Made by a program: the position numbers and the translations under genes. This document shows, one piece after another, positions 28,541 to 42,232 of a DNA stretch of 53,407 bases. The DNA lies in the IMG/VR virus record IMGVR_UViG_3300036859_000475, positions 1-53,407 of that record; one strand, 5' to 3'. Numbering within the stretch: the stretch's first letter is position 1; every line of letters begins with the position of its first letter. Origin of the DNA: a virus. Taxonomy: Duplodnaviria > Caudoviricetes. The notes under the pieces are model-generated. The model ran no database searches and had not been told where the DNA came from. It worked only from the letters and a program-made list of their open reading frames with translations.

Positions 28541-31060
28541 ATGCCCAGATTCGACTATGCGACTCCCCTGCTCGGTGCGCCGGGGCCCGGCTACGCCGGC
28601 GACGTGAACGAGGGGCTGGACGAGATCCGCACCAAGGTGGTCGGATTCCTGCAAGGCACGGCGGCTTCACGCCCGGCACCCTCGGCCGACAACCAGGGTT
28701 ACCTGTACTTCGCCACCGACTCCGGCGAGCTGTCCTACAGCACCGGCACGGCATGGACGGCCAACCTGATCGGCGGAGGCGTCGGCGGCACCGCCCCCTT
28801 CTTCTATCCCACCACCTACGACCCGGCCTGCGGCCCGGCCGCGACGGGCGCAGTGAATCTGGCGGCCATCCAGGCCGCCTGCGACGCCGCGGCGACGGCA
28901 GGCGGCGGGCTGGTCGTCCCGCCCGCCGGCGTGCTCACGGTCAATCCGTCGATCACGCTGGACCACTTCGTCTGGCTGCTGCTGTCGGGCACGACCCTCA
29001 AGCACGGCAACCCCACGGTCGGGCCCCCGCCCTCGCCGATCATCCTGGGCAAGCTCCGCATCACGACCGGCACCATCGCGGCGGGGTCCAAGACCCTCAC
29101 GGTGGCCTCGGCTACGGGGCTCAAGAAGGGCTGCGCCGTCCAGGTGAGGGGGGCCGGCGGCCCCTCGGAGAACACCATCACCGCCCTCACGCTCGCCCTC
29201 GGGGCGGCCGACACGGAGGCGGTCGTCGACAACGCCGTGCCCTGGGGCACGGACAGCTCCCGCATCATCCGCTGCGAGAACGAGCTCATGACCTACACGG
29301 GCCACAGCATCGGGACGCCTACCACGCTGAACAACCTCGTGCGCGGTGCCTTCGGATCGACGGCGGCCTCCCACCCCGCCGGGGCCACGGTGCGGGCGGC
29401 GCTCCCGCTTTACTCGCGCATCGCCGACATATCGGGGACGACCCTCACGCTGGAGGACGCCGCCGTGTACGGGGTCACCAACGTCTCGGGGCCGGGAGTC
29501 AGCGTCGGGGCGCTCGAGGCCGGCGTGATCGGGGGGCGCCTGGACGGCGCCCGACCGAGCCTGGCCGGCAACCAGGTGCAGGGAATGCGTTTCGACGCCG
29601 CGGCCAACTGCAAGTTCCTGGGCATGGACGACGTGGGATGCGGGCTCAACGGGATCGCCTTCGGGCGCGGCTGCGTCGGGTGCGAGGTCATTGGCGGGGA
29701 GTCCCGCGACACGGGCGCGCCGGACGCCGGGATCGGGTTCTCCATCGTCATCTTCTCCGGCTCCCACGGCAACACCTGCTACGGGCGCAAGTTCACCGGC
29801 CAGTCCATCGCCCCCATCGCCGTGGACGACCGATCGGTGAGCCACACGGACAACGACGCCGCCGTGTTCGGCAACGTGGTCGAGGCCTGCGATATCGACA
29901 CCGACGAGCAGGACGCGACGCGCTGGGCGATCCTGATCTCCGGCGCCAAGGGAAACATCTTCCGCGCCAACAAGATCCGCCGTTCGCAGCTGCCCATCTA
30001 CGTCGTGGCCACGCAGGGCAACGTCCCCGTCCCCGTGACCGACAACCTCATCGAGGGCAACGTTCTGGAGGACTGCGCCGACGTGATCGTGCTTGCCGGC
30101 GGCATCACCCAACAGGACGGCGAGTGCTCCGGCAACGTCGTGCTGAACAACATCGGCATCGGCACGACGCCGCGCTCCCTGGTCGCCGAGCGCCACGGCG
30201 CGCACGACAACAAGATCGCGGGCAACGAGCGCAGCGGCATCTACGACCTGCTGTCGGGGGGTCGCCTGCAGGTGCTCATACCCTCCGAGGTCCCGGCGGG
30301 GGCCCTGGTCCACGACGGCCGGGTACTGCTGGAGGCCAACGGGGTGAGGGCGAGGCCGATCACGTCCGGGGCCACCGACGTCGACGGCCTCGTGGCGACG
30401 ACTTCCAGCGCCGGCTTCGCGGCCAACGCCCTGGCGCTAGTGCTCGCCCTCGCCCACCGCCCCATCACGGGCGATCCCAGCATTCCCCTGGTCTCCGGCG
30501 GGGGCATGAGCGGTTGGAATCACCACGCCAGCGTGCTGTTCGGCATCGCGGGCCAGCGCCACCGCCTCTCGGTTCACCGCGCCCTGCAGGCCTCGCCGGG
30601 GATCGCCGCGCCCATAACGATCACCTATCCCGAGATCGAGGACGCCGTTGCCTGGTCGGTGCTGCAAGCCCTGGGAGTAAACACGTCCGGCACCAACGGT
30701 GCGGGGGCCATAGCGCAGGCGCCTACGGCCACGGGGACCGCAGACCTGCTGAACGTGCCCATGGCGGCCTTCGCCTCCGGGGCGAACGCGTGCTTAGCGG
30801 CGTTTGGGCACGTGAGCTCTGAGGTCTTGGCCCCGGACGTGGACTTCGAGGTACTCGCGTCCGAGCCGACGGTGCAATTGCGCCTGATGGACGAATGGCT
30901 GCGCGGCCCGGACACGAATCCGACGGCCACGCGCGTGCCCGTCACGCTCCCGAACTGGGGAGCGCTGGCCCTCGAGCTCGTTGCCGCGACCCCGACCGTG
31001 GAAAACCTCGTGTACTACCAGCACGGGCAGCGCTTCCGGGTGATCGGGACGGCATTCTGA
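28541..31060 (+). CDS. Tail spike/receptor-binding protein with beta-helix
   Basis: AAIQAA.DAA...GGG.V.PPAG entry motif; Asn-rich rungs (GNIFRAN, DNLIEGN, DNKIAGN). Confidence 0.8.
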   Translation: MPRFDYATPLLGAPGPGYAGDVNEGLDEIRTKVVGFLQGTAASRPAPSADNQGYLYFATDSGELSYSTGTAWTANLIGGGVGGTAPFFYPTTYDPACGPAATGAVNLAAIQAACDAAATAGGGLVVPPAGVLTVNPSITLDHFVWLLLSGTTLKHGNPTVGPPPSPIILGKLRITTGTIAAGSKTLTVASATGLKKGCAVQVRGAGGPSENTITALTLALGAADTEAVVDNAVPWGTDSSRIIRCENELMTYTGHSIGTPTTLNNLVRGAFGSTAASHPAGATVRAALPLYSRIADISGTTLTLEDAAVYGVTNVSGPGVSVGALEAGVIGGRLDGARPSLAGNQVQGMRFDAAANCKFLGMDDVGCGLNGIAFGRGCVGCEVIGGESRDTGAPDAGIGFSIVIFSGSHGNTCYGRKFTGQSIAPIAVDDRSVSHTDNDAAVFGNVVEACDIDTDEQDATRWAILISGAKGNIFRANKIRRSQLPIYVVATQGNVPVPVTDNLIEGNVLEDCADVIVLAGGITQQDGECSGNVVLNNIGIGTTPRSLVAERHGAHDNKIAGNERSGIYDLLSGGRLQVLIPSEVPAGALVHDGRVLLEANGVRARPITSGATDVDGLVATTSSAGFAANALALVLALAHRPITGDPSIPLVSGGGMSGWNHHASVLFGIAGQRHRLSVHRALQASPGIAAPITITYPEIEDAVAWSVLQALGVNTSGTNGAGAIAQAPTATGTADLLNVPMAAFASGANACLAAFGHVSSEVLAPDVDFEVLASEPTVQLRLMDEWLRGPDTNPTATRVPVTLPNWGALALELVAATPTVENLVYYQHGQRFRVIGTAF

Positions 31061-31797
31061 TGACGCCGGACACGCTACTGGCGAGCTACTTCCTGCAGGC
31101 GCGCTACACGGGCGGTGCGCAGTCGAAGATCTCCCGCATCGTCATACACGATGAGGAGTATCGGGAGGGACCGGACTCCGCCGAGCGCATCGCCCAGTAC
31201 TTCCACACCATGCCCGATGGTCGAAAAGCCAGCGCGCACTTCACGTGCGACTCGAACTCGATAATTCAATGTGTGAAGGAGAGCGTCGTCGCCTACCACG
31301 CGCCGCCGAACGCTGACTCCATCGGGATAGAGCACGACGGCTACATGCACCAGACGCGGGAGGAGTGGCTGGACGCGGCGCACGGCGTCCCCATGCTCAA
31401 GCTCTCGGCGAAGCTGACGGCCGAGCTGTGCAAGCGGCACGGGATTCCGATCCGCAAACTTTCGTGGGCTGATCTGCGGACGGGCAAGAAGGGCATCTGC
31501 GGCCACGTCGACGTGAGCAACGCATTTCATAAGACGGACCACGGCGATCCCGGCGCGGGCTTCCCGTGGGATTGGTACCTCGAATGGGTGAGGCTGGCAG
31601 GAAAGGAGGTCTTCGACGTGTTTTTCATTCCACCGGGCACGAACAAGCTCTACGCCGTCGTGGGCAGCGTGAAGCGGCGGCTGGCTCCGGGCAAGGCGGG
31701 AACGGCGCAGCGCAAAGCATTGGAAGGTGCGGGTGTAAAGATCATCACCGGCGAGCAGGCCGCAAGGCTGGACGAAGCGTTTCCGGAGGGGACGTGA
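31060..31797 (+). CDS. Endolysin, Amidase_2 family
   Basis: IVIH, ASAHF, AYHA, SIGIE, GH.D...HGDPG..FPW. Confidence 0.92.
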   Translation: MTPDTLLASYFLQARYTGGAQSKISRIVIHDEEYREGPDSAERIAQYFHTMPDGRKASAHFTCDSNSIIQCVKESVVAYHAPPNADSIGIEHDGYMHQTREEWLDAAHGVPMLKLSAKLTAELCKRHGIPIRKLSWADLRTGKKGICGHVDVSNAFHKTDHGDPGAGFPWDWYLEWVRLAGKEVFDVFFIPPGTNKLYAVVGSVKRRLAPGKAGTAQRKALEGAGVKIITGEQAARLDEAFPEGT

Positions 31798-31800
31798 GCT

Positions 31801-32154
31801 GTGAGAGATGCCAATGACCGCGAGTTTGCTGATCGCAGAGGTGATCTCGATGTCGAATCAATCGGTCCCTTCGAGCGGTTCCCTCTCGTTGTGAACGGCT
31901 GGACGGTGCCCCATCTCGAAGCTCAGAACAAACGCGATGGTGGCGTGTACGTCTCACTCGATAACCGGTTCGGCCTGGACTTGCCCGACGAGTTGGCAGG
32001 GCCGGTCCTCTCCTTCATGGCCAATGTCGTGGCAGTCGCAATGGGTTATCCGTGTCATCCGAGACGCGGCGAAGAACCGCCGCAATCCTCTCCACCATGG
32101 CACCGGCTCAGTCCGTTGCCGATGCTTGATCCCCGAGGAGCGGGGGACGCATGA
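31801..32154 (+). CDS. Hypothetical protein (insert)
   Basis: VVNGWTVP, LDNRF, AVAMGYPCH; lower GC. Confidence 0.6.
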   Translation: MRDANDREFADRRGDLDVESIGPFERFPLVVNGWTVPHLEAQNKRDGGVYVSLDNRFGLDLPDELAGPVLSFMANVVAVAMGYPCHPRRGEEPPQSSPPWHRLSPLPMLDPRGAGDA

Positions 32155-32339
32155 GAATGTTCGCTGAAGCCGAACGTCTGCGATATCGGGAAACACTAGA
32201 AGCCATCCTCGACGAACTGACTCGACCTACCAAGAAAGCTGTGGCCAAGGTTGTGCGTATGGCGCGGTTGGCCCTAGTGGACGTACCAGCGGACCACTCA
32301 TCCGGTGACCTGGACAAGGTGTTTCCAGAAGGCACGTAA
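32151..32339 (+). CDS. Hypothetical protein (insert) ending like the endolysin
   Basis: ATGA overlap; ends LDKVFPEGT. Confidence 0.55.
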   Translation: MRMFAEAERLRYRETLEAILDELTRPTKKAVAKVVRMARLALVDVPADHSSGDLDKVFPEGT

Positions 32340-32348
32340 CGCGACTTC

Positions 32349-32594
32349 ATGCCTACACGCACCGTCACCAACACCGAACTGGGGCACCGTTTGGACACCG
32401 TAGAGAAGGCCGTGGAGCGGTTGCACCACAAATGGGATGACTTTGTGGCCAAGTCCCTAGAGGAACAGGTGAAGCAGTTGCGTAGCGATATCAACGATCT
32501 CAAACGGTTCAGAACATGGCTATTGCAGACGGTGTTCGTCGTCGTGTTCCTCGGCGGGTTGGCATCGGTCATCGGCTGGGCGGTGTCGAGGTGA
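32349..32594 (+). CDS. Holin-like membrane protein
   Basis: Coiled coil plus C-terminal hydrophobic segment; near the endolysin. Confidence 0.6.
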   Translation: MPTRTVTNTELGHRLDTVEKAVERLHHKWDDFVAKSLEEQVKQLRSDINDLKRFRTWLLQTVFVVVFLGGLASVIGWAVSR

Positions 32595-32842
32595 CTGAGA
32601 CGAAGACCTGTGCGTGGTGCGATGGAACCGGCGAGAAGCTAGGCGTCTGCGGCTGGTGTGACGGAACAGGTATCCAGAAGCCGAGTTGGTCTGGCGGCGG
32701 CGGTCCTGGTGAACATCGGACTTGCGGCCCTATTCGGGCTTGGTGCTACGAGTGCCGGGAATGGTGTTACGCCAGAGATGACGACCCAGTGTGGCGATGT
32801 GCGTGCTGTCCGCTGACAGCCGATCCGGTGACGACGCATTGA
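32591..32842 (+). CDS. Cys-rich Zn-finger protein (insert)
   Basis: CxxCDGTG twice. Confidence 0.6.
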   Translation: MTETKTCAWCDGTGEKLGVCGWCDGTGIQKPSWSGGGGPGEHRTCGPIRAWCYECREWCYARDDDPVWRCACCPLTADPVTTH

Positions 32843-33390
32843 GAGCGCTGCGCTCACGTCTGCGCGGCCAAGTCCGCCTAGGGCGAGCGGTCATCGTCGT
32901 GCTGGCCGCTGCCGCCGTGGCCCTGGGCTGGTTGGTGGGCTCGCAGACCTCTCGCGTCGGTCAGGTCGAGAACCAGGCCGAGCAGGGACGGCAGATGATC
33001 CGCGAGAACCGCGAGCGCATCGGAGGGCTGACGCGTGAACTCGGTCGAGCTGCCTCGATCGGCGAGCTGAGTCAGCTCATCACCGTCATCGAGCGCCTGA
33101 CCGGCGCGCAGGACGCAGGCAACCGGGAGGAGTTCGTTCCGTCCGGCGAGGCTGAGCCCAGTCCCTCGCCTGCGCGAACGGCGTTCCCTCGGCCCCGGCC
33201 CTCCCCGCCGCTGAACCCGCTTCCCGAGCCCACGCCATCCCCCGGCACCCTCAAGCCGATCCTGTGCGCGATGTTCCCGGACACGATGGCGCTGATCGGA
33301 GTGAACTGCCGCAGCGACACGTTCATCGTGTGTGACTTGGCGGGGCTCTCGTGCCCGGCTCCGCCCAGGCCTCCGTCCCCGCCGCGATGA
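32791..33390 (+). CDS. Membrane-anchored coiled-coil, Pro-rich lysis-associated protein
   Basis: Hydrophobic segment, coiled coil, Pro-rich tail; start uncertain. Confidence 0.6.
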   Translation: MAMCVLSADSRSGDDALRALRSRLRGQVRLGRAVIVVLAAAAVALGWLVGSQTSRVGQVENQAEQGRQMIRENRERIGGLTRELGRAASIGELSQLITVIERLTGAQDAGNREEFVPSGEAEPSPSPARTAFPRPRPSPPLNPLPEPTPSPGTLKPILCAMFPDTMALIGVNCRSDTFIVCDLAGLSCPAPPRPPSPPR

Positions 33391-33404
33391 ATTGAGGCAC
33401 CCCG

Positions 33405-33443
33405 GTCCTCCGCCGTCAGGTAACGGGCGGACGGACTCCCTTT
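33405..33443 (+). terminator. Hairpin at the end of the lysis block
   Basis: GTCCTCCGCCGT / ACGGGCGGACGGAC imperfect stem. Confidence 0.45.
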
Positions 33444-33448
33444 ACGGG

Positions 33449-33478
33449 TGTACCTACGCTATGTAAGATGTACCTACG
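33449..33478 (+). promoter_or_regulatory. Direct-repeat operator around a leaderless -10 box
   Basis: TGTACCTACG at 33449 and 33469; TAAGAT at 33464. Confidence 0.65.
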
Positions 33479-33639
33479 TGCCTAACTCACCGAAGACGCC
33501 CAGCCGCAATGTTCGCGTCCCTGATGACGTGTGGGATGCGGCCAAGACGAAGGCAGCCAACCGTGGCGAGAGTGTCACGGACGTCATCCTTCGCGCTCTT
33601 CGGAGGTACGTGAAGGAAGAGAGAGAGGATCAATCGTGA
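33478..33639 (+). CDS. Ribbon-helix-helix DNA-binding protein
   Basis: TPSRNVRVPDDVW...GESVTDVILRALRRYV. Confidence 0.85.
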   Translation: MPNSPKTPSRNVRVPDDVWDAAKTKAANRGESVTDVILRALRRYVKEEREDQS

Positions 33640-33799
33640 ACGGCATGGGCGGCTGTAGCTCAATCATCGCGATAGAGCGCCGACTTCCCCGGCCCGCTGG
33701 CAGGGCACAAGCAGGGGTTCTAGGTGGTCGGAGATGGGGTAGCCAGCTAATCCCCCAGCCGCCCATGTCCGTTGTGTCGCAGTCAGAGGACGTTTCCTG

Positions 33800-34054
33800 A
33801 TGGCCAGTCAGAAAACCGAGCGAGACCGTCTCTTGGACGTTGGATTCAAGGTACTCGATGACTTCAACGACGCGAACTGTCCTCACTGTGGCAGCGACGA
33901 TTGCTACCTCAATGACCCCACGACCAACGGATTTATCTGCGAGAACACCAACAAGCACATCCCGGCGGATGACGACTACCGGGCAATGGCTGCTCTACTG
34001 CTTGATGCCTGGCTCCCCATGCTCGGCGTCACATTACCAACGGACGCGAAATGA
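33800..34054 (+). CDS. Zn-ribbon hypothetical protein
   Basis: RBS AGAGG; CPHCGS. Confidence 0.6.
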   Translation: MASQKTERDRLLDVGFKVLDDFNDANCPHCGSDDCYLNDPTTNGFICENTNKHIPADDDYRAMAALLLDAWLPMLGVTLPTDAK

Positions 34055-34440
34055 CCCCTGTGCACATCTGCCCTGTCTGCTATCAAGAACCGGCTGTAGG
34101 CCACCATCCGCTATTCCATCGGATAGAAGAACGACTATCCGCTCTTGAACGGGAACTTGTTGCCCCAGAGTCGAAAGACCGGGTGCGCTGCAAGCTCTGT
34201 GGGTGGATCGGCTGGGCACATGCCGACGACCAATGCGAACGCTGCGACGTGGCCGGGGAGTTTGAGGCAGCGATGGATTCGTCTGTTGCCAAGGGACCAC
34301 CGAAAGCGCCAGATATGGTTGGCGGCTTCGAGGACACTCGGTCGGCGGGTACGGGCTCCGGTGATGGCGCCCCCGGAACGTCGAGAACCCCGCAGGGTCC
34401 CTTGTCAACGGACTCCGCGTCAACGGACGCGGAGGGATGA
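34051..34440 (+). CDS. Cys-rich hypothetical protein
   Basis: ATGA overlaps; three CxxC pairs. Confidence 0.55.
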   Translation: MTPVHICPVCYQEPAVGHHPLFHRIEERLSALERELVAPESKDRVRCKLCGWIGWAHADDQCERCDVAGEFEAAMDSSVAKGPPKAPDMVGGFEDTRSAGTGSGDGAPGTSRTPQGPLSTDSASTDAEG

Positions 34441-35390
34441 AGGTTGGCTCCCTCTTTTCGGGAATCGGAGGGCTCGACCTTGGGCTTGAGCGGGCCGGCA
34501 TGGAGATCGTCTGGCAGTGCGAGAGCGACCCCTATTGCCGCGCCGTCCTCCGAAAGCACTGGCCCCACATCGAACTCTTTGGCGACGTGCGGACCCTCTA
34601 CGCTCCCCGAAGGGTTGATCTCATCTGCGGCGGTTTCCCCTGCCAGCCAGTCAGCCAAGCTGGACGTCGACGAGCCCAGGCTGACGATCGTTGGCTCTGG
34701 CCCGAGATGGCCCGTGTTCTTCGGGACCTACGACCCCGCTATGTCCTTGTGGAAAATGTCCCAGGGCTCCTTGCTCGAGGAATGGGAGACGTCCTCGGAG
34801 ACCTGGCCTCCCTCGGGTTCGATGCAGAGTGGGAGAGCCTTCCGGTTGCCGCGTTTGGTGCCCCGCACTTACGAGACCGGGTGTTCATCTTCGGCTATCG
34901 GCCGCCCGAGACTGTTGGACGGCCCGGAAAGCAACGGCGGGTTTTGGCCGACACCGAGAGCGGTGGACAACGGCCAGATCAAGACAACCCGGACAGATCC
35001 TCGGAACAAAACCTCGAGTCCGTCTCTCAGCGAGGCAGCGCAGATGTGGCCTACTCCCAAGGCGAGCGCAGCGAACTACGGCCGACCGCGGGAGAGCGAC
35101 TGGGGGGATCTCCAAGCGGCCGTGTTGTGGCGCACACCCCAAGCGCGGGACGGGGACCAGAGGGGGCCGAGCTCGCCCGAGCGCAGAAAGGAGCAGGGAC
35201 ATTCGGTGTCCCTGCACGATCAGGTTGGTGGGCAACTGAACCCGACGTGGGTCGAGTGGCTCATGGGATTCCCTCTCGGGTGGACCGTCTTAGAGCCCTC
35301 GGAAACGCCGTCGTCCCGCAAGTCGCGGAATGGATAGGAAGACGAATCATGGCAGCGGACGAACGCTCATCGGAGCGGGAGGGGCGATGA
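34437..35390 (+). CDS. C5-cytosine DNA methyltransferase, main polypeptide
   Basis: Motifs I FSGIGG, IV GFPCQP, VI ENVPG, VIII RDRVFI, X RALGNAV. Confidence 0.93.
   Translation: MKVGSLFSGIGGLDLGLERAGMEIVWQCESDPYCRAVLRKHWPHIELFGDVRTLYAPRRVDLICGGFPCQPVSQAGRRRAQADDRWLWPEMARVLRDLRPRYVLVENVPGLLARGMGDVLGDLASLGFDAEWESLPVAAFGAPHLRDRVFIFGYRPPETVGRPGKQRRVLADTESGGQRPDQDNPDRSSEQNLESVSQRGSADVAYSQGERSELRPTAGERLGGSPSGRVVAHTPSAGRGPEGAELARAQKGAGTFGVPARSGWWATEPDVGRVAHGIPSRVDRLRALGNAVVPQVAEWIGRRIMAADERSSEREGR
34741..35337 (+). CDS. Overlapping +1-frame methyltransferase partner polypeptide (motif IX)
   Basis: WPTP repeats and LNPTWVEWLMGFPLGWT; start uncertain (frame open from 34444). Confidence 0.7.
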   Translation: MSLWKMSQGSLLEEWETSSETWPPSGSMQSGRAFRLPRLVPRTYETGCSSSAIGRPRLLDGPESNGGFWPTPRAVDNGQIKTTRTDPRNKTSSPSLSEAAQMWPTPKASAANYGRPRESDWGDLQAAVLWRTPQARDGDQRGPSSPERRKEQGHSVSLHDQVGGQLNPTWVEWLMGFPLGWTVLEPSETPSSRKSRNG

Positions 35391-35668
35391 GGAGCCCATT
35401 GGCGGACATCGGAAGTCCGGCCACGGTGTTCAGCCTGGACCGTCCCGGCACCCAAGGTTGCCTACGCGAACCCGTCGAGGGCGGCTATTGCGCGCTGCTC
35501 TGGGAATGCGACCACGCTCACCGGACAGACGACGCGGCGCTGGACTGTGCGCGGAAGGAGTTCGACCGCCGGCGCACCGAGATCATCGCAAACGCTCCGC
35601 CCGATTCCTGGTGGCTGGCAGGCAACAATTCAGCGGATGAACGGTCATGGGACGAGGGAGGGGCATGA
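35387..35668 (+). CDS. Hypothetical protein
   Basis: WECDHAH...A..CA; ATGA overlap. Confidence 0.6.
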   Translation: MRSPLADIGSPATVFSLDRPGTQGCLREPVEGGYCALLWECDHAHRTDDAALDCARKEFDRRRTEIIANAPPDSWWLAGNNSADERSWDEGGA

Positions 35669-35949
35669 ACCCGTATTCGGCAGTACGGCGAGGAGCTCGA
35701 TTCTTAGACCGGGAACTGCCCCGGTGGGCCGAGATCATCGACCCCAGCCTGCTCATGATGAACGACTGCTATCGGTGTGTCCTTGGGCAACTCTTCCGAA
35801 ACTTCGACGCAGGACTGTGTAATCAATCGGTCCATCCCGCAGAGCGCGTTGTGTGGCTCCGAGACTGGCACAGCAGCCTGACCGTCCATGAGCGGTGCTA
35901 CGACGTGTATCAGGCCGTTGCGGTAGTTTCTCACGAGACCGATGGCTGA
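35665..35949 (+). CDS. Hypothetical protein
   Basis: GARFLD...PRW...CVLGQL. Confidence 0.6.
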   Translation: MNPYSAVRRGARFLDRELPRWAEIIDPSLLMMNDCYRCVLGQLFRNFDAGLCNQSVHPAERVVWLRDWHSSLTVHERCYDVYQAVAVVSHETDG

Positions 35950-36202
35950 CCAGTTCGTTCATCTGACAAACGTGGAGGGCAAACGCCTTGCTCTGGTGGC
36001 TGCGTGCATCGATTTCGTACTTGAGGGACATGAGGAGGAGAAGAACGGCGAGAAGCGAAGGGGCACGCTCGTCGGGACGCACGGGCAGTTTCACCTGGTC
36101 CGAGAGTCCTTCGCTGAGGTCGTCTCGTTCGCCAACGAGAAGGCCCAGATGATCCGAACGCTAGCGGCTGACACGATCGTGGAAGGGCTCAAGGATGACT
36201 GA
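35942..36202 (+). CDS. Hypothetical protein
   Basis: FVHLT...VRESFAEV. Confidence 0.6.
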   Translation: MADQFVHLTNVEGKRLALVAACIDFVLEGHEEEKNGEKRRGTLVGTHGQFHLVRESFAEVVSFANEKAQMIRTLAADTIVEGLKDD

Positions 36203-36222
36203 TTCAACGGACTTCAGGTCCT

Positions 36223-36504
36223 ATGACTGAACGCACGTACTCCAGCCCACTGCTCGTTGGCCCGCTCTGGTGGCGGCTCTGGTGGCGGGTGCGGAATCCA
36301 TGCTGGTGCAAGTGCCAGGGGGTCGTTCCGAAGTTCGATTGCCCACGGCACCGAACGGAGACGCGAGGGTTCTGCGCCAAGTGCAAGCGGTACGACCTTG
36401 TATTCCTCGACGGGGAGACGTTCTGCGCTGGATGCGGAGCCGGATCGCTCGTCCCATCGTATGACTCACAAAGAGCGATGAGCCCAGGAGAAGCTGATGG
36501 CTGA
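36223..36504 (+). CDS. Cys-rich hypothetical protein
   Basis: Several CxxC pairs; ends PGEADG. Confidence 0.5.
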   Translation: MTERTYSSPLLVGPLWWRLWWRVRNPCWCKCQGVVPKFDCPRHRTETRGFCAKCKRYDLVFLDGETFCAGCGAGSLVPSYDSQRAMSPGEADG

Positions 36505-36670
36505 GCGACCCGTCATCGCGCGATGCGAGAGGTGCGGCATGTACTGGTTCTCCCGCGTTCGGGCTCGTTGCGATGCCCATGCCCATCGGATGTACTGCGG
36601 GGGATACGTCCGGTGGAAGCGGGGGTTGGTCCAAACGTCCGGCTCTGTCCCAGGAGAAGCCGATGGCTGA
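36497..36670 (+). CDS. Small hypothetical protein (57 aa, MAER...PGEADG)
   Basis: Translated by hand; RBS AGGAG; flanked by 25-bp direct repeats. Confidence 0.5.
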   Translation: MAERPVIARCERCGMYWFSRVRARCDAHAHRMYCGGYVRWKRGLVQTSGSVPGEADG

Positions 36671-36818
36671 GCGGTGCAAGTGCGTAATCAGACGATGCGG
36701 CTGCGGCATGAAGACGTGCCTGTACGTGTCGGTCCTCTGGCGTGACCCGAACTGCCGCAACTTCGGCCACAATCCGGGCCTGTTGTTGAAGGAAGACCGT
36801 CGGGCTGATGTCCGCTGA
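36663..36818 (+). CDS. Small Cys-rich hypothetical protein
   Basis: RBS AGGAG; starts MAER. Confidence 0.45.
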   Translation: MAERCKCVIRRCGCGMKTCLYVSVLWRDPNCRNFGHNPGLLLKEDRRADVR

Positions 36819-36851
36819 GGCCGCTGAGATTCAACTAGGAGCCGACAGCGC

Positions 36852-37043
36852 GTGAACTTCTCCTTCCTCGGTGGCCGCAAGAACGTCGCCTACTACGTGA
36901 CGGTGCTCTCCGTCTTCGTGAAAGCTATCGTGCTGCACTCCTTGGACGTGGAGGTGATCCTGACAGCGGGGATCACCTTCATGGCGTCCAGTGCCGTGAT
37001 CGAGGCGTCGGCACAGATCGTTAGCGCGCGACGTCGGCGCTGA
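36852..37043 (+). CDS. Small two-helix membrane protein (holin-like)
   Basis: RBS AGGAG; GGRK followed by two hydrophobic segments. Confidence 0.6.
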   Translation: MNFSFLGGRKNVAYYVTVLSVFVKAIVLHSLDVEVILTAGITFMASSAVIEASAQIVSARRRR

Positions 37044-37049
37044 CCCGCC

Positions 37050-37178
37050 TCAGCGGCGCAGGCAGTCGTACCAAGCTGCGACGACCGCGATCCAGGCGTT
37101 GACGACCAGCACCAGAACGCCCCCGGTCACGCCGATCCCGGCGGGCGAGAGCACCGGCTGGACGAGGAAGCTCACCAT
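37050..37178 (-). CDS. Small membrane protein
   Basis: Single hydrophobic segment; last gene of the leftward operon. Confidence 0.45.
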   Translation of the reverse strand: MVSFLVQPVLSPAGIGVTGGVLVLVVNAWIAVVAAWYDCLRR

Positions 37179-37182
37179 CTCG

Positions 37183-37710
37183 CTAGGCCTTGCACTCCCA
37201 CTGTCCCTCGCCTGATTCCTGCAAGACGCGCCAGTTGACGCGCGCTTGCTCCTCGATCGGATAGTTGTGGGGATCGCCCCGCCCGCCGTGCGCATGCCAC
37301 GTCGAAAGCATGTCCTGGAAGAACGAATGACAGCAGGCGTTGTGGGCCATCTGGTCGAAGTCGGACTCGCATGAAACGATGGCCACGGCCCAATCGTCGG
37401 GGTGCTCGGGGTCCGTGTCCGGCCACGCGCAGCGCAGCCGACGCGAGAGGTCGGCCCGGCTACCTCCCTCGGGTCGGCAGGGATCCAGGGTCGGGGACGG
37501 TCGAGGCCGTGGAGTGGGCGTGGCGGGCGGGGCTGTGGGCTCCGGAGCGGGCGTGGGGGTCGGGGTGGCACCGGGAACCTCGAACGACGCCAGCGTCGCT
37601 TCTAGGGGTTCGTACGCCCTTGTGGCGGGAAATGCCCTACCGAGCGTTGCGGAAGCGAGGACCAGGGCCAGGGTAAAGAGCCGTGCTTCGGCCCTAGCGG
37701 TCGGTCGCAC
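37183..37710 (-). CDS. Secreted Rpf-like lytic transglycosylase with Pro/Thr linker
   Basis: Signal-like N-terminus; CES...FQ...STW.A.GG.G.P...EQ..V..RV....G.GQW.C. Confidence 0.75.
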   Translation of the reverse strand: MRPTARAEARLFTLALVLASATLGRAFPATRAYEPLEATLASFEVPGATPTPTPAPEPTAPPATPTPRPRPSPTLDPCRPEGGSRADLSRRLRCAWPDTDPEHPDDWAVAIVSCESDFDQMAHNACCHSFFQDMLSTWHAHGGRGDPHNYPIEEQARVNWRVLQESGEGQWECKA

Positions 37711-37712
37711 AG

Positions 37713-38045
37713 TCAGGAAGGCTCCGGTCCCCAGGAATGCAAGCTCCACCCGATCGCCTCGGCGAAGGCCGGGTCGTTCGTCACGAGCTCGTGGTGGGCG
37801 CGGCAGCACGCCTTGACGTTCGACTCGTCGGTGATCGAGCCGCCTCGCGCCCGGGAGCGAAGCTCGTGGACGTCGACGGATAGCGCTCGACAATCGGGGA
37901 ACTCGCAGATGGGGCGCTCGGCCAGAACCCGGCGTACGAGCGGGACGCGCTGCTCTCGGTAGGTTCGCGCCATTTTCTCCGAGCGATGTCGCAGGGCGGA
38001 TCTTCGGCGCAGCGTAGAGAACCTTTTCAAGCCGGACCGTCTCAT
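37713..38045 (-). CDS. HNH-family nuclease
   Basis: CE...C...DVHE..SRARGG...N...CRAHH. Confidence 0.7.
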   Translation of the reverse strand: MRRSGLKRFSTLRRRSALRHRSEKMARTYREQRVPLVRRVLAERPICEFPDCRALSVDVHELRSRARGGSITDESNVKACCRAHHELVTNDPAFAEAIGWSLHSWGPEPS

Positions 38046-38296
38046 TCGCGGCCTCTTGGCGCATATGGGGACACGGGGCTCCTTTCGAGGGGATTCGCCG
38101 CGCGGATGGGCGCAGCTCTCGCAGGTGACCTTTCTAACCCAAGCAGGGGCCCGAGCGCCACGACCGATGGGGGAGGGAAAGAGAGAGCGGCGCCCCCGGC
38201 AGGTTCGTCGGAACACGCAGGGGCGCCGCCCGTGGCGCCGGACGGAAGGAGGGGTCCCCACATCCGGCGCCAAACGATGCTACAAGCCCTCGGGGC

Positions 38297-38479
38297 CTAG
38301 AAGGGAGGCTCCTCGTCATCGGGAATCTCCATCAGCCCGAGGGCGAACTCCCTCATCTTGGCGAGGCATTCGTCGCCACAAAAGGTCATCGCACCCACCC
38401 GATGCGCGACAGGCCCCAGCTGCCCGCACGTCGCACATCGCGCCGGCTCTGGATCAAAAGTGATCGGGCTTCGCCTCAC
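38297..38479 (-). CDS. Small Zn-finger protein with acidic tail
   Basis: CATC...FCGDEC; ends DDEEPPF. Confidence 0.55.
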   Translation of the reverse strand: MRRSPITFDPEPARCATCGQLGPVAHRVGAMTFCGDECLAKMREFALGLMEIPDDEEPPF

Positions 38480-39650
38480 GCTCGGCGGCGAAGGCTTCGA
38501 GCCGGTCCGAGCACTTCCGAAGCGACGAGATCGCGAGGTCGCGCAGCGGCGAGGCGAAGCCCGTCAGCGCACCCATCTGCTCGTCGTCCAGGTCGAACTC
38601 GTCGGCCATGTCGGCGGCCATGAGCAGGGTGACCCGGCGCTCCTCGACGGGATCGCCGGACAGCTTCGCGTCCTGCTCGCTCGGCGCCCAGTCGGCCTGC
38701 GCAGCCGCGCGCAGCCGAGCGCCGAGCGTCTGCTCGACTGGCTCCCACTCCGGGTCCTCGGCGCGATGCAGCAAGTCGCGCAGCTCGTCCAGCCCGAGCT
38801 CCTTCGTGGAAGCCCTCGGCGCGATGGCCGAGCGCAGCTTGGCCTCGGCCGCGTCGCCCCATCGGGTGCGGCAGACCGTCCACAGCGCCCTGCGCGCCTG
38901 CTCCTCGGGCGTGAGTTCGTGGGCGGGCTCCGGTTCGGGCTGCTGCTGCGGGAGTGATTCTTCGGCAGGCTCGGGCTGCTGGCCTCCGACGTCGGCGGGC
39001 GCCACGATCGCGCCGTCGGTCAGCTCGTCGGCGGTGTAGCTGATCCCGGCACAGACGTCCTCGAACAGCGTGCCGACGAGCTCCGAGGTCGCGCGCGCGA
39101 CGAGCATGAATCGCGTGAACTTCTCCCACGCGAGCGGCGCGCCGTTCTGCGAGCGCGCGATGATCTCGCCGCGTTCGTTGCGAGCGCACAGCTTGGCCGT
39201 GATCGCATCGTCGATGGTGTAGGTCGCGCGGTCGTATTGACCGGTATCGACGCGCTTGCCCTCGACCACGGCTCGCTCGGCATTGCATTCCGCACGCACA
39301 ACGGCGATGTAGTGACCGCGCCGGCGCACGAGCGCGCGCATGAGCTCGGCCGAGAGGTTCGGCCGACCATCCACCACCTGAATCGATTGCAACGCTTGCA
39401 TCGGCCCGATGCCGAGTTCGCGCCCCGACAGGATGCACGCGAGGACCGCACCCGGCTTACCGCGCAATCCCCTCGGAACGAAATCGGTGTCGTTCACCTG
39501 ATTGGAGATCTGCGCGATGATGTTCCACTCGCCGCTCGACGGTGGGCCAAGCGTCGCCGGCGGCTTGGCCGCGAGCGCGGTGGTTTCCGGCTCGGGCTCC
39601 GGCTCAGTCTTGCGGTTCTTCATGTCCACGACCTCTGCCGTCTTGCTCAC
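38454..39650 (-). CDS. RecT-like single-strand annealing protein
   Basis: VPRGLRGKP, GRELGIGPMQALQSIQVVDGRP.LSAELMRALV, MLVARA, YTADEL. Confidence 0.8.
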   Translation of the reverse strand: MSKTAEVVDMKNRKTEPEPEPETTALAAKPPATLGPPSSGEWNIIAQISNQVNDTDFVPRGLRGKPGAVLACILSGRELGIGPMQALQSIQVVDGRPNLSAELMRALVRRRGHYIAVVRAECNAERAVVEGKRVDTGQYDRATYTIDDAITAKLCARNERGEIIARSQNGAPLAWEKFTRFMLVARATSELVGTLFEDVCAGISYTADELTDGAIVAPADVGGQQPEPAEESLPQQQPEPEPAHELTPEEQARRALWTVCRTRWGDAAEAKLRSAIAPRASTKELGLDELRDLLHRAEDPEWEPVEQTLGARLRAAAQADWAPSEQDAKLSGDPVEERRVTLLMAADMADEFDLDDEQMGALTGFASPLRDLAISSLRKCSDRLEAFAAEREAKPDHF

Positions 39651-39659
39651 GACCGCTCC

Positions 39660-40457
39660 TCATTGATTGATGGCGCGAACTGCCTCGAGCGCGAGGTTCA
39701 GGTGATCGACTAGGATGCAGTCTCCCCAGGCTTCGCTCGCGGCCTTGATGGCCTTCTCTAGCTGTTCGGCGATGCGCTCGGCCACCCGATCGGCTACGAG
39801 CGTGCGCTGGTGGGGCCTGACGCGCGACTGCCTCACCTCTACGACGTCCTCGTACCTGATGGTGCCGTTGGCTTGTAGCCGACGCGCTAGCTCGCGTTGC
39901 TGCTCTTCGTCGCAGCGCGCGGCAGCCTCGCCCGCCTTGGTGCCGATGCGGCCGTCCAGCCAGGCATTGCGGATCGGATTCGACAGCGACGCGAGGCGCA
40001 TCCGCTTGCGGATGGTCTTGAGCGGGATGCCGGTGTCGCGGGCGATCACCACCGCCGACGGCGTGCCCTCGGCCGTGCGCATGATCTCCTCGATGAGTTC
40101 GAGCTCGACCACCGGATTCGGCGAAGCGTGCACGTTGCCCGCCAGCGCTACCGCCGAATCGGTCAGCCCGAGGTTGCCGTCGACCAGCACGCGCGCCGGA
40201 ACCTCGCGGACGCCGACGTGGCGGGCGGCTCGCGTCCGGCGGCGCCCGTCGATGACCACGAACGACTTGCCGTCTCTCCTCAGCAGCACGGGCGTGAACA
40301 CGCCGTGGATCTCCACCGAGCGCAACATTCCCTCGTCCGGCGGCGAGCCCCAGTTCGCCTCGCGGATCAGCTTTACTGGGACGACGGCGTCGGCCCACTC
40401 GGGTGGCGGTCCGAGGTCGAGTCCTGGCTGCCGTGCCTCTTCCTGCTTGCTCGTCAT
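39660..40457 (-). CDS. ParB/Spo0J-like protein with HTH
   Basis: SV..HGV.TPVLL, VIDGRRRTRAA, IARDTG. Confidence 0.8.
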   Translation of the reverse strand: MTSKQEEARQPGLDLGPPPEWADAVVPVKLIREANWGSPPDEGMLRSVEIHGVFTPVLLRRDGKSFVVIDGRRRTRAARHVGVREVPARVLVDGNLGLTDSAVALAGNVHASPNPVVELELIEEIMRTAEGTPSAVVIARDTGIPLKTIRKRMRLASLSNPIRNAWLDGRIGTKAGEAAARCDEEQQRELARRLQANGTIRYEDVVEVRQSRVRPHQRTLVADRVAERIAEQLEKAIKAASEAWGDCILVDHLNLALEAVRAINQ

Positions 40458-40585
40458 CACCGCACCTCTCCTTCCTCGAAGACGTCCCGAAGCAACTCCC
40501 ACGCCTGCGTCACGAGCGCGCTCGTGACGACCACGAAGGTCGTCGGCAAGATCGCGAAGCGAAAAACCAGGTCGAGCCACCTCAT
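40457..40585 (-). CDS. Small membrane protein (42 aa)
   Basis: Translated by hand; overlaps both neighbours. Confidence 0.4.
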   Translation of the reverse strand: MRWLDLVFRFAILPTTFVVVTSALVTQAWELLRDVFEEGEVR

Positions 40586-40776
40586 GCCTCATGCACCTCC
40601 TTAGGCCGGTCGTCCAATCCGGCCATCTCGAAGTCGGCCAGCCGGTCGCGAGCGCGGCCCACCGGACAGCGCGCGCTTGAGTGGGCAGGCCAGCACACGT
40701 GCGCCTTGTGCGGCGCCACGAGCTCGCGCACGGATCGCGCGAGCTCGTCGGCGAGCACGTGCCAGTCGACGTTCAT
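40582..40776 (-). CDS. Hypothetical protein
   Basis: ATGA overlaps. Confidence 0.5.
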   Translation of the reverse strand: MNVDWHVLADELARSVRELVAPHKAHVCWPAHSSARCPVGRARDRLADFEMAGLDDRPKEVHEA

Positions 40777-40994
40777 CGAGCGAACTCGATGGAGCGCAGC
40801 GCTTGCCGGCGCTCCGCGCTGCGGTCGCGCCGCTGGCGACGTTCCGCCGCGGCCCGTGCGCGCATCCGTGAGATGATCACGGCCGTCGCCCACGTCGGCC
40901 AAGTGTTCTCATCCCACAGCGCGCCGAACGCACGCTCGCCCAGTTCGCTGCGGATCGCGCACCGCTCCCGGCGCGCGAGTTCGTAGCTGATCAC
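40773..40994 (-). CDS. Hypothetical protein
   Basis: RBS AAAGGAGG. Confidence 0.55.
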   Translation of the reverse strand: MISYELARRERCAIRSELGERAFGALWDENTWPTWATAVIISRMRARAAAERRQRRDRSAERRQALRSIEFAR

Positions 40995-41042
40995 TTCGGC
41001 GGCCCCTCCTTTCGTCCCTGTGCTCCGACGTGTGAGAAAGGA

Positions 41043-41516
41043 TTATATCTCTAGCCGCCGACGTTGCGCTCTCTTATTTTCACGCGCCCAACGGCGACAC
41101 TCGTCACATCGACATCTGAGCGTCCTATAGCCACCGCTCGTGCCATGCCGAATAACGGCCCTGCGCTCAGCTATGACCTCGGCTTGCGTTCTCGCACCTC
41201 GCCTCCGCCGAAGTTGCCTATAGTACGCCGTGTTGGCCTCTCGGCACTGTTCGCAGCGACACTTGTGATTGACGTATTCGCTCAGCGTGCCGTGTTTGGG
41301 CATTCGAGGGCGATGGACGACCGAATGTTTGTCGTAGTGGCACCTGTGACAGATCGGCACGATATCGCCCTTGTGGGCCTCGTCGTAGCCACGATGATGG
41401 TGATATTCCTGCGCGCTCGCTCCGCAGTTACAAATCTGTAGGTGCGGCCGAGGCAACTTCCCCGTCCGGATCAGATATGCGACATGATCGCGGGCTCGCT
41501 TGGGCTGCGTAGACAT
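41043..41516 (-). CDS. HNH-like protein with two HGT..Y..CRC..C repeats
   Basis: YHHH.GYD...ICHRCH; TAAGAT 8 nt upstream of ATG. Confidence 0.7.
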   Translation of the reverse strand: MSTQPKRARDHVAYLIRTGKLPRPHLQICNCGASAQEYHHHRGYDEAHKGDIVPICHRCHYDKHSVVHRPRMPKHGTLSEYVNHKCRCEQCREANTAYYRQLRRRRGARTQAEVIAERRAVIRHGTSGGYRTLRCRCDECRRWARENKRAQRRRLEI

Positions 41517-41599
41517 GAGGGCCCATCTTATAGCCCGGCGCGGACAACTGGCTTCGACCAAGCTCCTGACCAGCGCTTTTGCCTCGTATCCCAGGCCAC

Positions 41600-41628
41600 T
41601 GGCAACCGAGCCGGGGCTGGGGTACGCT
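41600..41628 (+). promoter_or_regulatory. Rightward early promoter candidate
   Basis: TGGCAA-17 nt-TACGCT in the divergent intergenic region. Confidence 0.5.
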
Positions 41629-41681
41629 TGTACCAGTCGGAACACGGAGGCCCACCAGGGCCAAGAGAAGGAGGGACGCTG

Positions 41682-42026: not shown

Positions 42027-42232
42027 CCTCCGCGCTCGACAACGCGAAGCGTCTTCTCGTTCACTACTTCCGGCTCGCTGGGATCGAAGTCGACCGCGAT
42101 CGGGACCTCCGCGTCGAGATAGAGAGCATCGTCGACGAGATCGCGACCGGCGTCCTGAAGGCCGTGCGCGATGGTGCGGAGCCCTGCATCAAGCATGGCG
42201 CGTATCCGTGCTCGACCTGCCTAGTGCCGTGA
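42023..42232 (+). CDS. Hypothetical protein
   Basis: Overlaps both neighbours. Confidence 0.55.
   Translation: MTSALDNAKRLLVHYFRLAGIEVDRDRDLRVEIESIVDEIATGVLKAVRDGAEPCIKHGAYPCSTCLVP

Follow-up and report, generated by a model that had tools for sequence, protein, structure and literature searches.

Accessory regions are where most orphan genes of phages, along with many defence and counter-defence genes, arise and turn over; to our knowledge, the regulation and assembly of such arrays are largely unknown, and a mechanism is known only for stoperators and PeSLs among the phage junction repeats described so far. KorB operators and the ParB-family sites of plasmids and the phage-plasmid N15 are dispersed full palindromes bound by a gene-regulating protein of the ParB family, and integron attC sites are folded sites of 57–141 bp with RYYYAAC and GTTRRRY cores that require the integron integrase. 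The SAS/ESAS of Cluster K are a conserved 13-bp word in one orientation that includes the ribosome-binding site, and SAS lie 3–8 bp from the start codon. The PeSLs (promoter-early stem-loops) of T4-type phages are cassettes of a sigma-70 promoter and a terminator hairpin, with recombination shuffling genes and yielding mini-circles. Cluster O mycobacteriophages carry an invariant 17-bp dyad, TGTTCGG-NNN-CCGAACA (7+3+7), more than 30 times per genome; the phage encodes proteins with ParB-like domains and lacks an integrase. Finally, the stoperators of Cluster A, sites of the L5 gp71-type repressor, are 13 bp long, found genome-wide, and all oriented with transcription. These short asymmetric sites are proposed to allow a single protein to shut down transcription across many genes (PMC4351075, PMC3203893, PMC9283540).

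The window analysed here is the whole genome, 53,407 bp, of an uncultured soil phage, and it contains a cluster of small accessory genes in which the 8-mer GTCCGYTG (CARCGGAC on the opposite strand) recurs. The cluster genes are tightly packed, with mostly overlapping stop and start codons, and differ in composition from their surroundings (GC of 0.61–0.63 vs. 0.69–0.70 in the flanks; GC3 of 0.56–0.84 vs. 0.92 in the tail gene). Pfam and PHROGs supplied names for only two of the genes, a ribbon-helix-helix (RHH) protein and a methylase, and these are also the only two whose starts have backing from homologues, the other starts being called from open reading frames and start/stop overlaps.

31801–37043, + strand throughout: accessory cluster of 16 called small genes (ORFs, start/stop overlaps)
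33441–33639, + strand: Arc-like RHH gene with its upstream region, GTG start at 33478 (PHROG Arc-like repressor, E = 4.9e-17)
34437–35390, + strand: C5 cytosine DNA methyltransferase gene with motif copies on both sides (Pfam PF00145, E = 3.9e-43)

Thirteen exact copies of the motif are present genome-wide and ten of these fall inside 4.7 kb of the cluster, each where the original prediction had placed it: four on the + strand (32111, 32808, 33767, and 36810) and six on the - strand (32287, 34038, 34406, 34421, 35353, and 36205). The remaining three are at 9276, 15853, and 45204. The near matches that had been listed at 35631 (CAGCGGAT), 35913 (GGCCGTTG), and 36819 (GGCCGCTG) each proved to have one mismatch. 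The sites are as follows.

9276–9283, + strand: exact copy outside the cluster, within the small ORF 9133–9312, 18 nt 5' of the start at 9294
32111–32118, + strand: exact copy GTCCGTTG, 40 nt 5' of the start at 32151
32287–32294, - strand: exact copy (CAGCGGAC on the + strand), 62 nt 5' of the start at 32349
32808–32824, unstranded: exact copy GTCCGCTG and a degenerate inverted partner (6/8) across a 1-nt spacer, 31 nt 5' of the start at 32839
33767–33774, + strand: exact copy GTCCGTTG in non-coding DNA, 33 nt 5' of the start at 33800
34038–34045, - strand: exact copy (CAACGGAC), 13 nt 5' of the start at 34051
34281–34297, unstranded: imperfect 17-bp palindrome of two one-mismatch halves
34397–34428, unstranded: densest site, an imperfect palindrome (7/8 plus exact) and, 15 nt further along, another exact copy; the site ends 9 nt 5' of the methylase start at 34437
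35353–35390, - strand: exact copy (CAGCGGAC) heading a junction module of about 34–38 nt that forms the last 12 methylase codons
35631–35668, - strand: one-mismatch copy (CAGCGGAT) heading a second copy of the 35353 junction module, preceding the start at 35665
35913–35920, + strand: one-mismatch copy GGCCGTTG, 29 nt 5' of the start at 35942
36205–36212, - strand: exact copy (CAACGGAC) in the 20-nt gap after the stop at 36202, 18 nt 5' of the start at 36223
36810–36826, + strand: exact copy GTCCGCTG followed directly by a one-mismatch direct copy, 42 nt 5' of the start at 36852

The recurrence of the motif is real and non-random. About 0.6–0.8 copies are expected in 4.7 kb vs. the ten observed: in whole-genome dinucleotide shuffles a genome carries 7.27 copies, or about 0.64 for every 4.7 kb, and an order-3 Markov model of the cluster predicted 0.415 + 0.381 copies where 6 + 4 are found. 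The top 8-mer of the cluster is CAACGGAC, with p = 5e-6, compared with 7e-6 for the 1% quantile of the lowest p-values from 200 simulated clusters. Codon-preserving shuffles, which had been proposed as a check, never reached the observed number, with at least ten copies in 0/2000 codon-order shuffles (mean 2.6) and 0/2000 synonymous-codon shuffles (mean 3.5, maximum 7). All ten exact copies begin 13–62 nt upstream of one of the 16 called starts, a range for which 18% of cluster positions qualify (P = 3.7e-8), leaving a gap of 5–54 nt between motif and start codon, with the Shine-Dalgarno sequence outside the word. Exact copies tag 9/16 gene starts, and 11/16 are tagged if one mismatch is allowed. 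The proposal that each copy lies within about 50 bp of a stop codon fails at 33767: the RHH stop is 128 nt away, and the following gene begins 33 nt downstream. At 9276 the copy does lie in a small low-GC ORF (a 60%-GC insert in the structural module), as had been predicted, but does not end it, as ORF 9133–9312 continues for 29 nt beyond the motif.

The motif belongs to the known class of phage junction repeats, of which it is a well-documented example, and, as an 8-mer on one low-GC array, constitutes a small, testable, and statistically solid system. By analogy, the motif resembles stoperators, SAS, the Cluster O repeats, and PeSLs, although it differs from each. As with the stoperators, many short asymmetric sites are situated at or over stop and start codons in actinobacteriophage operons; unlike stoperators, these sites are 8 bp long, have a different sequence, occur in one 5-kb cluster plus one outlier, and take both orientations (4 + / 6 -). 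The features shared with the Cluster O repeats are dyad symmetry, freedom of orientation, positions that are often intergenic or near gene 5' ends, and, for Cluster O, greater density in one genome arm, but those repeats are complete palindromes, whereas 8/10 copies here are half-sites standing alone, and in the rare palindromes the spacer is 1 nt. SAS also place a conserved word upstream of the starts of many otherwise unrelated small genes; here, however, the spacing is variable (5–54 nt), the ribosome-binding site is excluded, and both orientations are used. PeSLs are small conserved cassettes between orphan genes in hyperplastic regions, to which this locus is similar except that a scan found 0 promoter sites in 30.5–42.5 kb and the junctions are less stable than gene interiors, with a strong hairpin only at 34437. 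The dispersed and partly palindromic sites, along with a ParB-like gene 3 kb from the cluster, recall KorB/ParB-type sites, but they are mostly half-sites, the ParB-like protein (ParB_N domain, E = 1.1e-6) has only a weak match in its HTH part, and ParA was not found among the phage proteins scanned. Similarly, an array of unrelated small genes is reminiscent of integrons, with one attC site per cassette, yet by eye RYYYAAC fits 1/6 CAAC-containing copies and GTTRRRY fits no + strand copy, there is no long imperfect hairpin at each junction, and no integrase was detected in Pfam/PHROG scans of the proteins covered.

The reading that we favour, although tentatively, is that the copies are orientation-independent double-stranded DNA sites for a DNA-binding protein, located between cassettes in leader or tail sequence under low constraint. 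The putative binder would be encoded by the phage or its host, and its sites would lie in the only low-constraint DNA of this tight operon, the short leader of each gene, which is mostly translated as what would be a dispensable C-terminal tail of the preceding gene. Once occupied, the sites might act like stoperators or KorB operators, with transcription of the accessory genes being silenced, blocked, or co-ordinated. While the clustering, the position at junctions, the use of both orientations, and the occasional palindromic or tandem pairs are directly observed, binding by a protein and its effect are what we infer. If true, this would be a new regulator-operator pair silencing a whole accessory array. 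Dispersed repressor sites had been offered in the original prediction as the alternative to a cassette boundary, and dispersed protein-binding sites are at least as good an explanation.

Counting for protein-binding sites are the sharp edges of the core, which has eight fixed positions (including one Y), with no consensus seen when the flanks of the ten exact copies were aligned by eye. One-mismatch copies number 18 vs. 9.5 expected, so that the ten exact copies are about as many as the one-mismatch surplus, and this high ratio of exact to degenerate copies points to selection on the word itself and against a neutral, decaying scar. The presence of both orientations, though all genes are on the + strand, fits recognition of the duplex better than an RNA signal. 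Two of the ten copies have an inverted partner of at least 6/8 at exactly a 1-nt spacer (background chance 0.013 per site), these being the two imperfect palindromes named in advance, at 34397–34413 (partner 7/8) and 32808–32824 (partner 6/8). The third palindrome, at 34281–34297, which forms an 18-nt inverted repeat with 34396–34413, and the tandem pair 15 nt apart also favour a protein site; three copies fall in the 32 bp of the densest site, directly 5' of the methylase gene. The RNA of the junctions is no more structured than that of gene interiors (mean of -26.2 vs. -30.5 kcal/mol in 150 interior windows), and the published actinophage repeats, Cluster A stoperators and Cluster O 17-bp dyads, provide precedents. 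Further support comes from an unrelated complete phage, G002, which has 29 copies of the half-site vs. 6 of the reversed control, in all three codon phases, and carries the same 1-nt-spacer palindrome, although its two palindromes are present by selection because it was picked by a palindrome search. This support is weakened by the differences between the two phages, as no common protein was found (tblastn at 1e-4), G002 has no ParB_N domain, and its flank preferences and hexamer core are not those of this phage; the word in G002 may be a separate phenomenon.

Other observations count against protein-binding sites. Eight of the ten copies stand alone, and a single 8-mer is short for a site that is to be bound stably; moreover, the motif is confined to one cluster rather than being genome-wide. 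All five exact sense copies in coding DNA, and two degenerate ones, share a codon phase for which codon usage predicts 44% (P ~0.016), behaviour that a pure DNA site need not show, and the 10–34 nt of flank common to some copies indicate copying. In addition, no binder was identified, and the RHH protein, the partner that had been put forward for EMSA, is disfavoured. Seven close homologues of this protein (L371–L376 and L385) come from loci with only 0–1 motif copies in 5–10 kb at similar GC, and in six of them (L371–L376) the stretch SRNVRVPDD is identical. The RHH gene, whose start at 33478 was placed from homologues, also has direct repeats of its own: two exact 10-nt copies, at 33449 and 33469, of a repeat unique in the genome, at a promoter-like TTTACG-17 nt-TAAGAT (33441–33469) that was read by eye and scores 8/12, although the promoter scan of 30500–42500 reported 0 promoter-like sites. 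Both the homologues with an identical N-terminal stretch in phages having 0–1 copies and this separate repeat make the RHH protein an unlikely binder.

It is possible, though somewhat less likely, and has real support, that the word and its 10–34-nt surroundings are instead a boundary or linker where small accessory genes were joined, and that the orphan array behind the lysis genes was built in this manner; the implication would be that orphan cassettes are shuffled without a dedicated recombinase. Apart from short matches in their tails, no similarity was detected among the flanked proteins, which agrees with the description of these genes as unrelated, and a search of 5.8 billion proteins with a single cluster gene gave no match other than the gene itself. 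The only backbone relative found (G001) lacks such a cluster after its lysin. Homology is limited to the junctions: the best pair, 35387/35665, has 34 nt in common (score 19 vs. a shuffle maximum of 11.5) in a module made up of motif, spacer, Shine-Dalgarno sequence, and ATGA (35353/35631), and other pairs share 24 nt inverted (32839 vs. 35387) and 20 nt (36497 vs. 36663). A direct repeat brackets a two-gene segment of 540 bp beside the lysin.

31771–32337, + strand: 28-nt imperfect direct repeat in the lysin tail and the tail of gene 32151–32339 (junction pair 31801/32349; score 13 vs. a shuffle 99th percentile of 10)

Also consistent with a boundary is the fact that alignments of methylase homologues mostly end at residues 297–311 of 317, the motif starting at residue 306. 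In 4 of the 6 closest RHH loci the RHH and methylase genes are direct neighbours; here, a structured element and two orphan genes lie between them, with motif copies bounding each. The eleventh copy is at the small inserted low-GC ORF far from the cluster, a RecT-like gene adjoins the cluster, and precedents are found in PeSLs and in gene 14 of Corndog, which is flanked by a 17-bp direct repeat. However, homologous annealing requires more than 8 bp and most copies have no extended flank in common, the copies take both orientations with no target-site duplications seen, and the ratio of exact to degenerate copies noted above argues against a neutral scar. The viral, genome, and metagenome collections searched yielded no close relative of the cluster against which breakpoints might be mapped, and in two public runs that hold the identical phage as contigs, which cannot reveal rare forms, the listed joints are not at motif copies. 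The suggestion that the motif is a cassette-acquisition or shuffling signal is partly supported, by the unrelated genes, the shared junction modules, and the bracketing repeat among others; no site-specific recombinase for the 8-bp site was found among the scanned proteins, in agreement with the earlier remark that none is visible. Via RecT-like annealing or template switching, a boundary word may even now help co-infecting genomes to gain, lose, and shuffle cassettes in register. A more elaborate version, which we regard as unlikely, makes the word the boundary tag of a recombinase-free system in which short conserved junction modules, the 8-mer plus 10–30 nt, would enable a RecT-type annealing protein, or template switching, to add, remove, invert, and exchange single small genes in register downstream of the lysis genes, an orphan-gene nursery that would be the actinophage counterpart of PeSL shuffling minus the promoters and terminators.

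Quite unlikely, in our estimation, is a signal at the RNA level, whereby sense copies (CARCGGAY) in a polycistronic mRNA would be targeted by one complementary RNA seed, or would pair with GUCCGYUG copies in the same transcript, tuning translation of the next cistron. Every copy does fall where translation of a downstream gene would be initiated, and, reading from sequence, the sense copies vary in ways (A or G at position 3, C or U at position 8) that G-U wobble with GUCCGUUG would tolerate. A structured non-coding element of 135 nt (z = -2.64) has one GUCCGUUG copy, that at 33767, at its 3' edge, where it supplies the 3' side of the closing stem, and at 34437 a 9-bp hairpin formed by the tandem copies overlaps the Shine-Dalgarno sequence. 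Against this, 4/10 exact copies are antisense to the rest, the start codon may be as near as 5 nt or as far as 54 nt, two + strand near-matches would fail to pair, no Rfam family matched, and the motif has no consistent structural role at junctions that fold less stably than gene interiors; local RNA hairpins are not supported.

We give very little credence to a coding by-product, in which the word would stem from favoured codons or from a C-terminal x-(Ala/Thr)-Asp peptide that recurs, and would not be a nucleic-acid signal. The seven sense copies in coding DNA (5/5 exact and two degenerate) all encode x-(A/T)-D in one common phase, for example Pro-Ala-Asp at 32287–32294 in the tail of gene 32151–32339, the degenerate ones change only synonymous positions, and A-D or T-D also occurs in the translated tails of several other cluster genes. 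Codon usage alone, however, predicts 44% for this phase, the synonymous-codon shuffles, which keep every protein, do not reproduce the copy number, and neither the methylase homologues nor those of the RHH protein show conservation of the tails. Moreover, the copies at 33767 and 36205 are non-coding, and the four + strand copies translate otherwise (S-P-L, C-P-L, V-R-stop), the TG of the 36810 copy opening the stop codon of gene 36663–36818.

Just as improbable is a motif imported from or selected by the host genome (uptake-sequence-like, Chi-like, or a chromosome-wide repeat), because, although an 8-mer found on either strand close to the ends of genes, a few copies being paired as inverted repeats, recalls uptake sequences and the unrelated phage G002 is enriched genome-wide, the perfect palindrome is at about chance level (94 occurrences in 596 Gb, all phyla) and GTCCGTTG is at background in 401/401 sampled genomes of Actinomycetota, a single phylum that may not be the host's, so that a host-genome-wide motif is not supported. 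Controls in these genomes were often similar; GTCCGTTG reached at most 212 copies, in 9.5 Mb, and the greatest density noted was about one per 15 kb, from 187 copies in 2.9 Mb.

The window covers an entire virus genome of 53,407 bp; the GC content is 67%, and the structural genes are ordered left to right. Its large terminase shares at most 49.5% identity with those of Streptomyces and Actinoplanes phages, and DNA searches of the phage collection for relatives, near or distant, returned either none or methylase fragments only. The features referred to below, within and around the accessory cluster that carries the motif (GTCCGYTG, or CARCGGAC in the other orientation), are as follows.

Ends at 31797: amidase lysin gene, just ahead of the cluster
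31801-37043, + strand: the cluster, sixteen small, tightly packed genes whose stop and start codons mostly overlap
Within 33441-33480: promoter-like TTTACG-17 nt-TAAGAT, with its end 8 nt ahead of the RHH gene's GTG start
33640-33774: cloverleaf-like structured non-coding element of ~135 nt, between the RHH stop codon and the next gene
34281-34297: third imperfect palindrome
34437-35390, + strand: C5 DNA methyltransferase gene (Pfam, E = 3.9e-43)
Downstream of the cluster, opposite strand: transglycosylase-like, RecT-like and ParB-like (39660-40592) genes

Only two of the sixteen cluster genes, those for the C5 DNA methyltransferase and an Arc-like RHH protein, could be named by Pfam/PHROGs. 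The cluster has a lower GC content (61-63%) than both of its flanks (69-70%), and its GC3 ranges from 0.56 to 0.84, compared with 0.92 for the tail gene. The cluster proteins have no mutual similarity except for short tail matches, in line with the view that the flanked genes are unrelated. When a single cluster protein was queried against a set of 5.8 billion, its only match was to itself. The 83-residue protein encoded at 32591-32842 contains the CxxCxGxG motif of DnaJ-type zinc fingers twice, and several of its small neighbors are likewise Cys-rich and zinc-ribbon-like, among them the products of 33800-34054 and 34051-34440. In the right arm, the only further DNA-binding candidate seen was the product of 43498-43884, which has a weak, sub-threshold match to a MarR-like winged helix (E = 2.4e-4). 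A tRNA-Thr called by ARAGORN at 37751-37838 is probably false, based on its poor D arm, its position inside an ORF on the other strand (37183-38064) and the lack of any Rfam tRNA match up to an E value of 1.

The motif occurs 13 times in the window, and ten of these copies lie between 32111 and 36817. All ten positions in the original prediction (32111, 32287, 32808, 33767, 34038, 34406, 34421, 35353, 36205, and 36810) proved exact, with four copies in the + and six in the - orientation, and its near matches at 35631, 35913, and 36819 have a single mismatch each. Both of the imperfect 17-bp palindromes that it described are also real, with partner halves that match at 7/8 and 6/8 positions across a 1-nt spacer. 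Dinucleotide shuffles produced 7.27 copies per genome, or ~0.64 per 4.7 kb. With the cluster itself as the training set, an order-3 Markov model predicts 0.415 copies of CAACGGAC versus six seen in the cluster, and 0.381 copies of CAGCGGAC versus four. No other 8-mer in the cluster is as over-represented as CAACGGAC (p = 5e-6); across 200 simulated clusters, the best p-value had a 1% quantile of 7e-6. Two kinds of codon-preserving shuffle, with 2000 trials each, gave at most seven copies. The mean was 2.6 when codon order was shuffled within genes and 3.5 when synonymous codons were exchanged with the proteins kept, and these figures count copies in the unshuffled parts too. The 7-mer AACGGAC is ~19-fold denser inside the cluster than elsewhere. 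One-mismatch copies number 18 versus 9.5 expected, so the exact copies roughly equal the degenerate surplus.

The copies are also non-random in position. Every one of the ten lies 13-62 nt upstream of a called gene start, a distance range that only 18% of cluster positions satisfy (P = 3.7e-8, based on the 16 starts called in the present analysis). Nine of the 16 gene starts have an exact copy and two more have a one-mismatch copy. The clustering of the motif is a robust, confirmed observation, and chance and composition are excluded as its source.

Eight of the ten copies sit inside the ORF that precedes the junction, at its 3' end; the two others, at 33767 and 36205, lie in non-coding DNA. 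Between the motif and the start codon there are 5 to 54 nt, a variable spacing which indicates that the 8-mer is not part of the ribosome-binding site, and alignment of the copies by eye showed no flank consensus. Certain junctions share more than the motif. Those before 35387 and 35665 have 34 nt in common (motif, spacer, Shine-Dalgarno sequence and ATGA), the 32808 and 35353 junctions share 24 nt in inverted orientation, and three further pairs share 10-13 nt. The C-terminal tails encoded by these junction modules are not conserved among homologs: in the methylase the motif begins at residue 306 of 317, and the alignment of most relatives ends at residues 297-311, while relatives of the RHH protein terminate six residues before it. 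Separately, the starts at 35942, 36497, and 36663 have an identical 8-nt start/stop overlap (ATGGCTGA), with 20 nt common to two of these junctions; the three proteins start with MAD or MAE, and the proteins upstream of them end in Asp-Gly.

We rank first, tentatively, the explanation that the copies are protein-binding sites, in which the 8-mer would be a duplex recognition site for a protein. In its favor, the motif is used in both orientations and has a sharp core, a large proportion of the copies are exact, and palindromic and tandem pairs occur occasionally. A possible parallel is G002, an unrelated complete phage (41,373 bp, podovirus-like, with terminal repeats) that emerged when 2.9 million viral contigs were scanned for the perfect or near-perfect palindrome. 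This returned 16 stretches, and the other loci obtained from palindrome scans have no protein set in common with this phage or G002. G002 has 29 copies of the 8-mer versus six of the reversed control, in either orientation and every codon phase and mostly within genes. The G002 core lies nearer to the hexamer ACGGAC (87 occurrences versus 31.5 expected); two relatives of G002, L287 and L288, are rich in this hexamer as well, but a third, L289, is not. G002 contains three paired sites, two of them perfect 17-bp palindromes and one a 14-nt tandem pair, and two of the three are in long intergenic regions. Since G002 was found by way of the palindrome, we regard it as a parallel rather than a homolog; tblastn found no protein shared with our phage. 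Ten small G002 proteins were silent in Pfam, except for two sub-threshold matches in one of them, and ParB_N was not present in G001, the sole backbone relative, G002 or G003. A scan of viral contigs for the tandem pattern gave 117 stretches, of which the copy-rich ones inspected were microsatellite-like repeats of 7 or 12 nt, none resembling G002.

The RHH protein, suggested as the binding partner, is unlikely to recognize the 8-mer. The loci of the seven close relatives inspected (L371-L376 and L385; GC 62-67%) have only 0-1 motif copies in 5-10 kb, and the stretch SRNVRVPDD is identical in six of the seven. Moreover, the RHH gene here is preceded by a separate repeat, 10 nt long and unique to this site in the genome, whose two exact direct copies at 33449 and 33469 overlap the promoter-like site and are probably the operator of the RHH protein. 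That this site ends only 8 nt before the GTG suggests a leaderless RHH mRNA. In four of the six closest loci (L371, L372, L374, and L376, around 5000-6300) the RHH homolog (70-74% identity) adjoins a C5 methyltransferase homolog on the opposite strand. RHH plus methylase, which here lie within 33478-35390, thus looks like a module of two genes that recurs, perhaps a controller and the methylase it serves.

The explanation we place second, and consider doubtful, is that the motif is a cassette-boundary or shuffling sequence. Homology limited to the junctions and conserved gene bodies that stop at the motif point in this direction, as does a 28-nt imperfect direct repeat, in the tails of the lysin gene and the gene at 32151-32339, that brackets a 540-bp two-gene segment. 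So does the outlying copy at 9276, associated with an inserted ORF. The small ORF noted there exists (9133-9312, within a 60%-GC insert in the structural module), but the copy does not end it, lying instead inside it, 18 nt before a gene start. Further support comes from G001, the one relative that the lysin query found among viral contigs (68% identity). Its structural proteins share ~45-60% amino acid identity with those of our phage, and downstream of its lysin it has three membrane proteins and a serine integrase, whereas the cluster is absent. In G001 the motif is at background (six copies, versus eight for the reversed control), 9294-9899 has no homolog, and there is no nucleotide synteny for mapping breakpoints. 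The RecT-like query found no relative among viral contigs, and the lysin query of metagenome contigs gave only relatives of ~45% identity and one 1.2-kb fragment. The methylase query identified 54 loci, all at ≤60% identity, which share no other cluster gene and have at most three motif copies. There was no motif enrichment in these or in 61 RHH relatives. Contigs in two public soil runs, X1 (the likely source) and X2 (from another study, at low depth), match the phage without differences, and those of X1 close the genome into a circle. The joints listed at 80% likeness in these contigs, where rare forms cannot show, lie off the motif, at the methylase and other conserved genes. The recognition-site and boundary explanations, the two that remain, are not exclusive; PeSLs are regulatory as well as recombinogenic.

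A role at the RNA level is improbable, and one for local RNA hairpins is not supported. Junction windows fold less stably than the interior (-26.2 versus -30.5 kcal/mol), a strong hairpin occurs only at the 34437 junction, and no Rfam family was detected at the gathering threshold or at E values up to 1. The closing stem of the non-coding element is built from the motif copy at 33767 and an inverted, degenerate one beside the RHH stop codon; the region 33636-33805 folds at -77.6 kcal/mol (z = -2.64; 1/200 shuffles equally stable), and the element matched no Rfam family and returned nothing in ARAGORN. No RNA run is listed as holding the phage. That the motif is a by-product of coding is very improbable. 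Its sense-orientation coding copies (all five exact and two degenerate) share one phase, in which they read x-(Ala/Thr)-Asp, but this is suggestive only, since codon usage alone predicts 44% for this phase (P about 0.016). Equally remote is a word common throughout the host genome, as GTCCGTTG was at background in 401/401 genomes (15 of them unpublished) of the single phylum sampled, Actinomycetota.

The motif belongs with the dispersed short repeats of actinobacteriophages, namely Cluster A stoperators, Cluster K start-associated sequences (SAS) and Cluster O 17-bp dyad repeats, the last of which were likewise left without an assigned function by their authors. However, the motif differs from each of these classes in length or sequence, fixed orientation, fixed start distance or complete dyads. 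Unlike PeSLs, its junctions have neither promoters nor stem-loops, and it lacks the defining features of integron attC sites, which places it outside any named family. Among the 20 of 1,197 matches listed, a literature search on both 8-mers gave only primer-type ones. The perfect palindrome occurred in 94 stretches, from all phyla, in 596 Gb of prokaryotic genomes, which is the chance level. On one Bifidobacterium chromosome (L063, 1068-1273) seven copies of the 8-mer lie in 200 bp, spaced ~9-30 nt except for the last. They precede a divergently transcribed gene for a protein with an HTH-like region at its N terminus, and have the look of an unrelated operator array.
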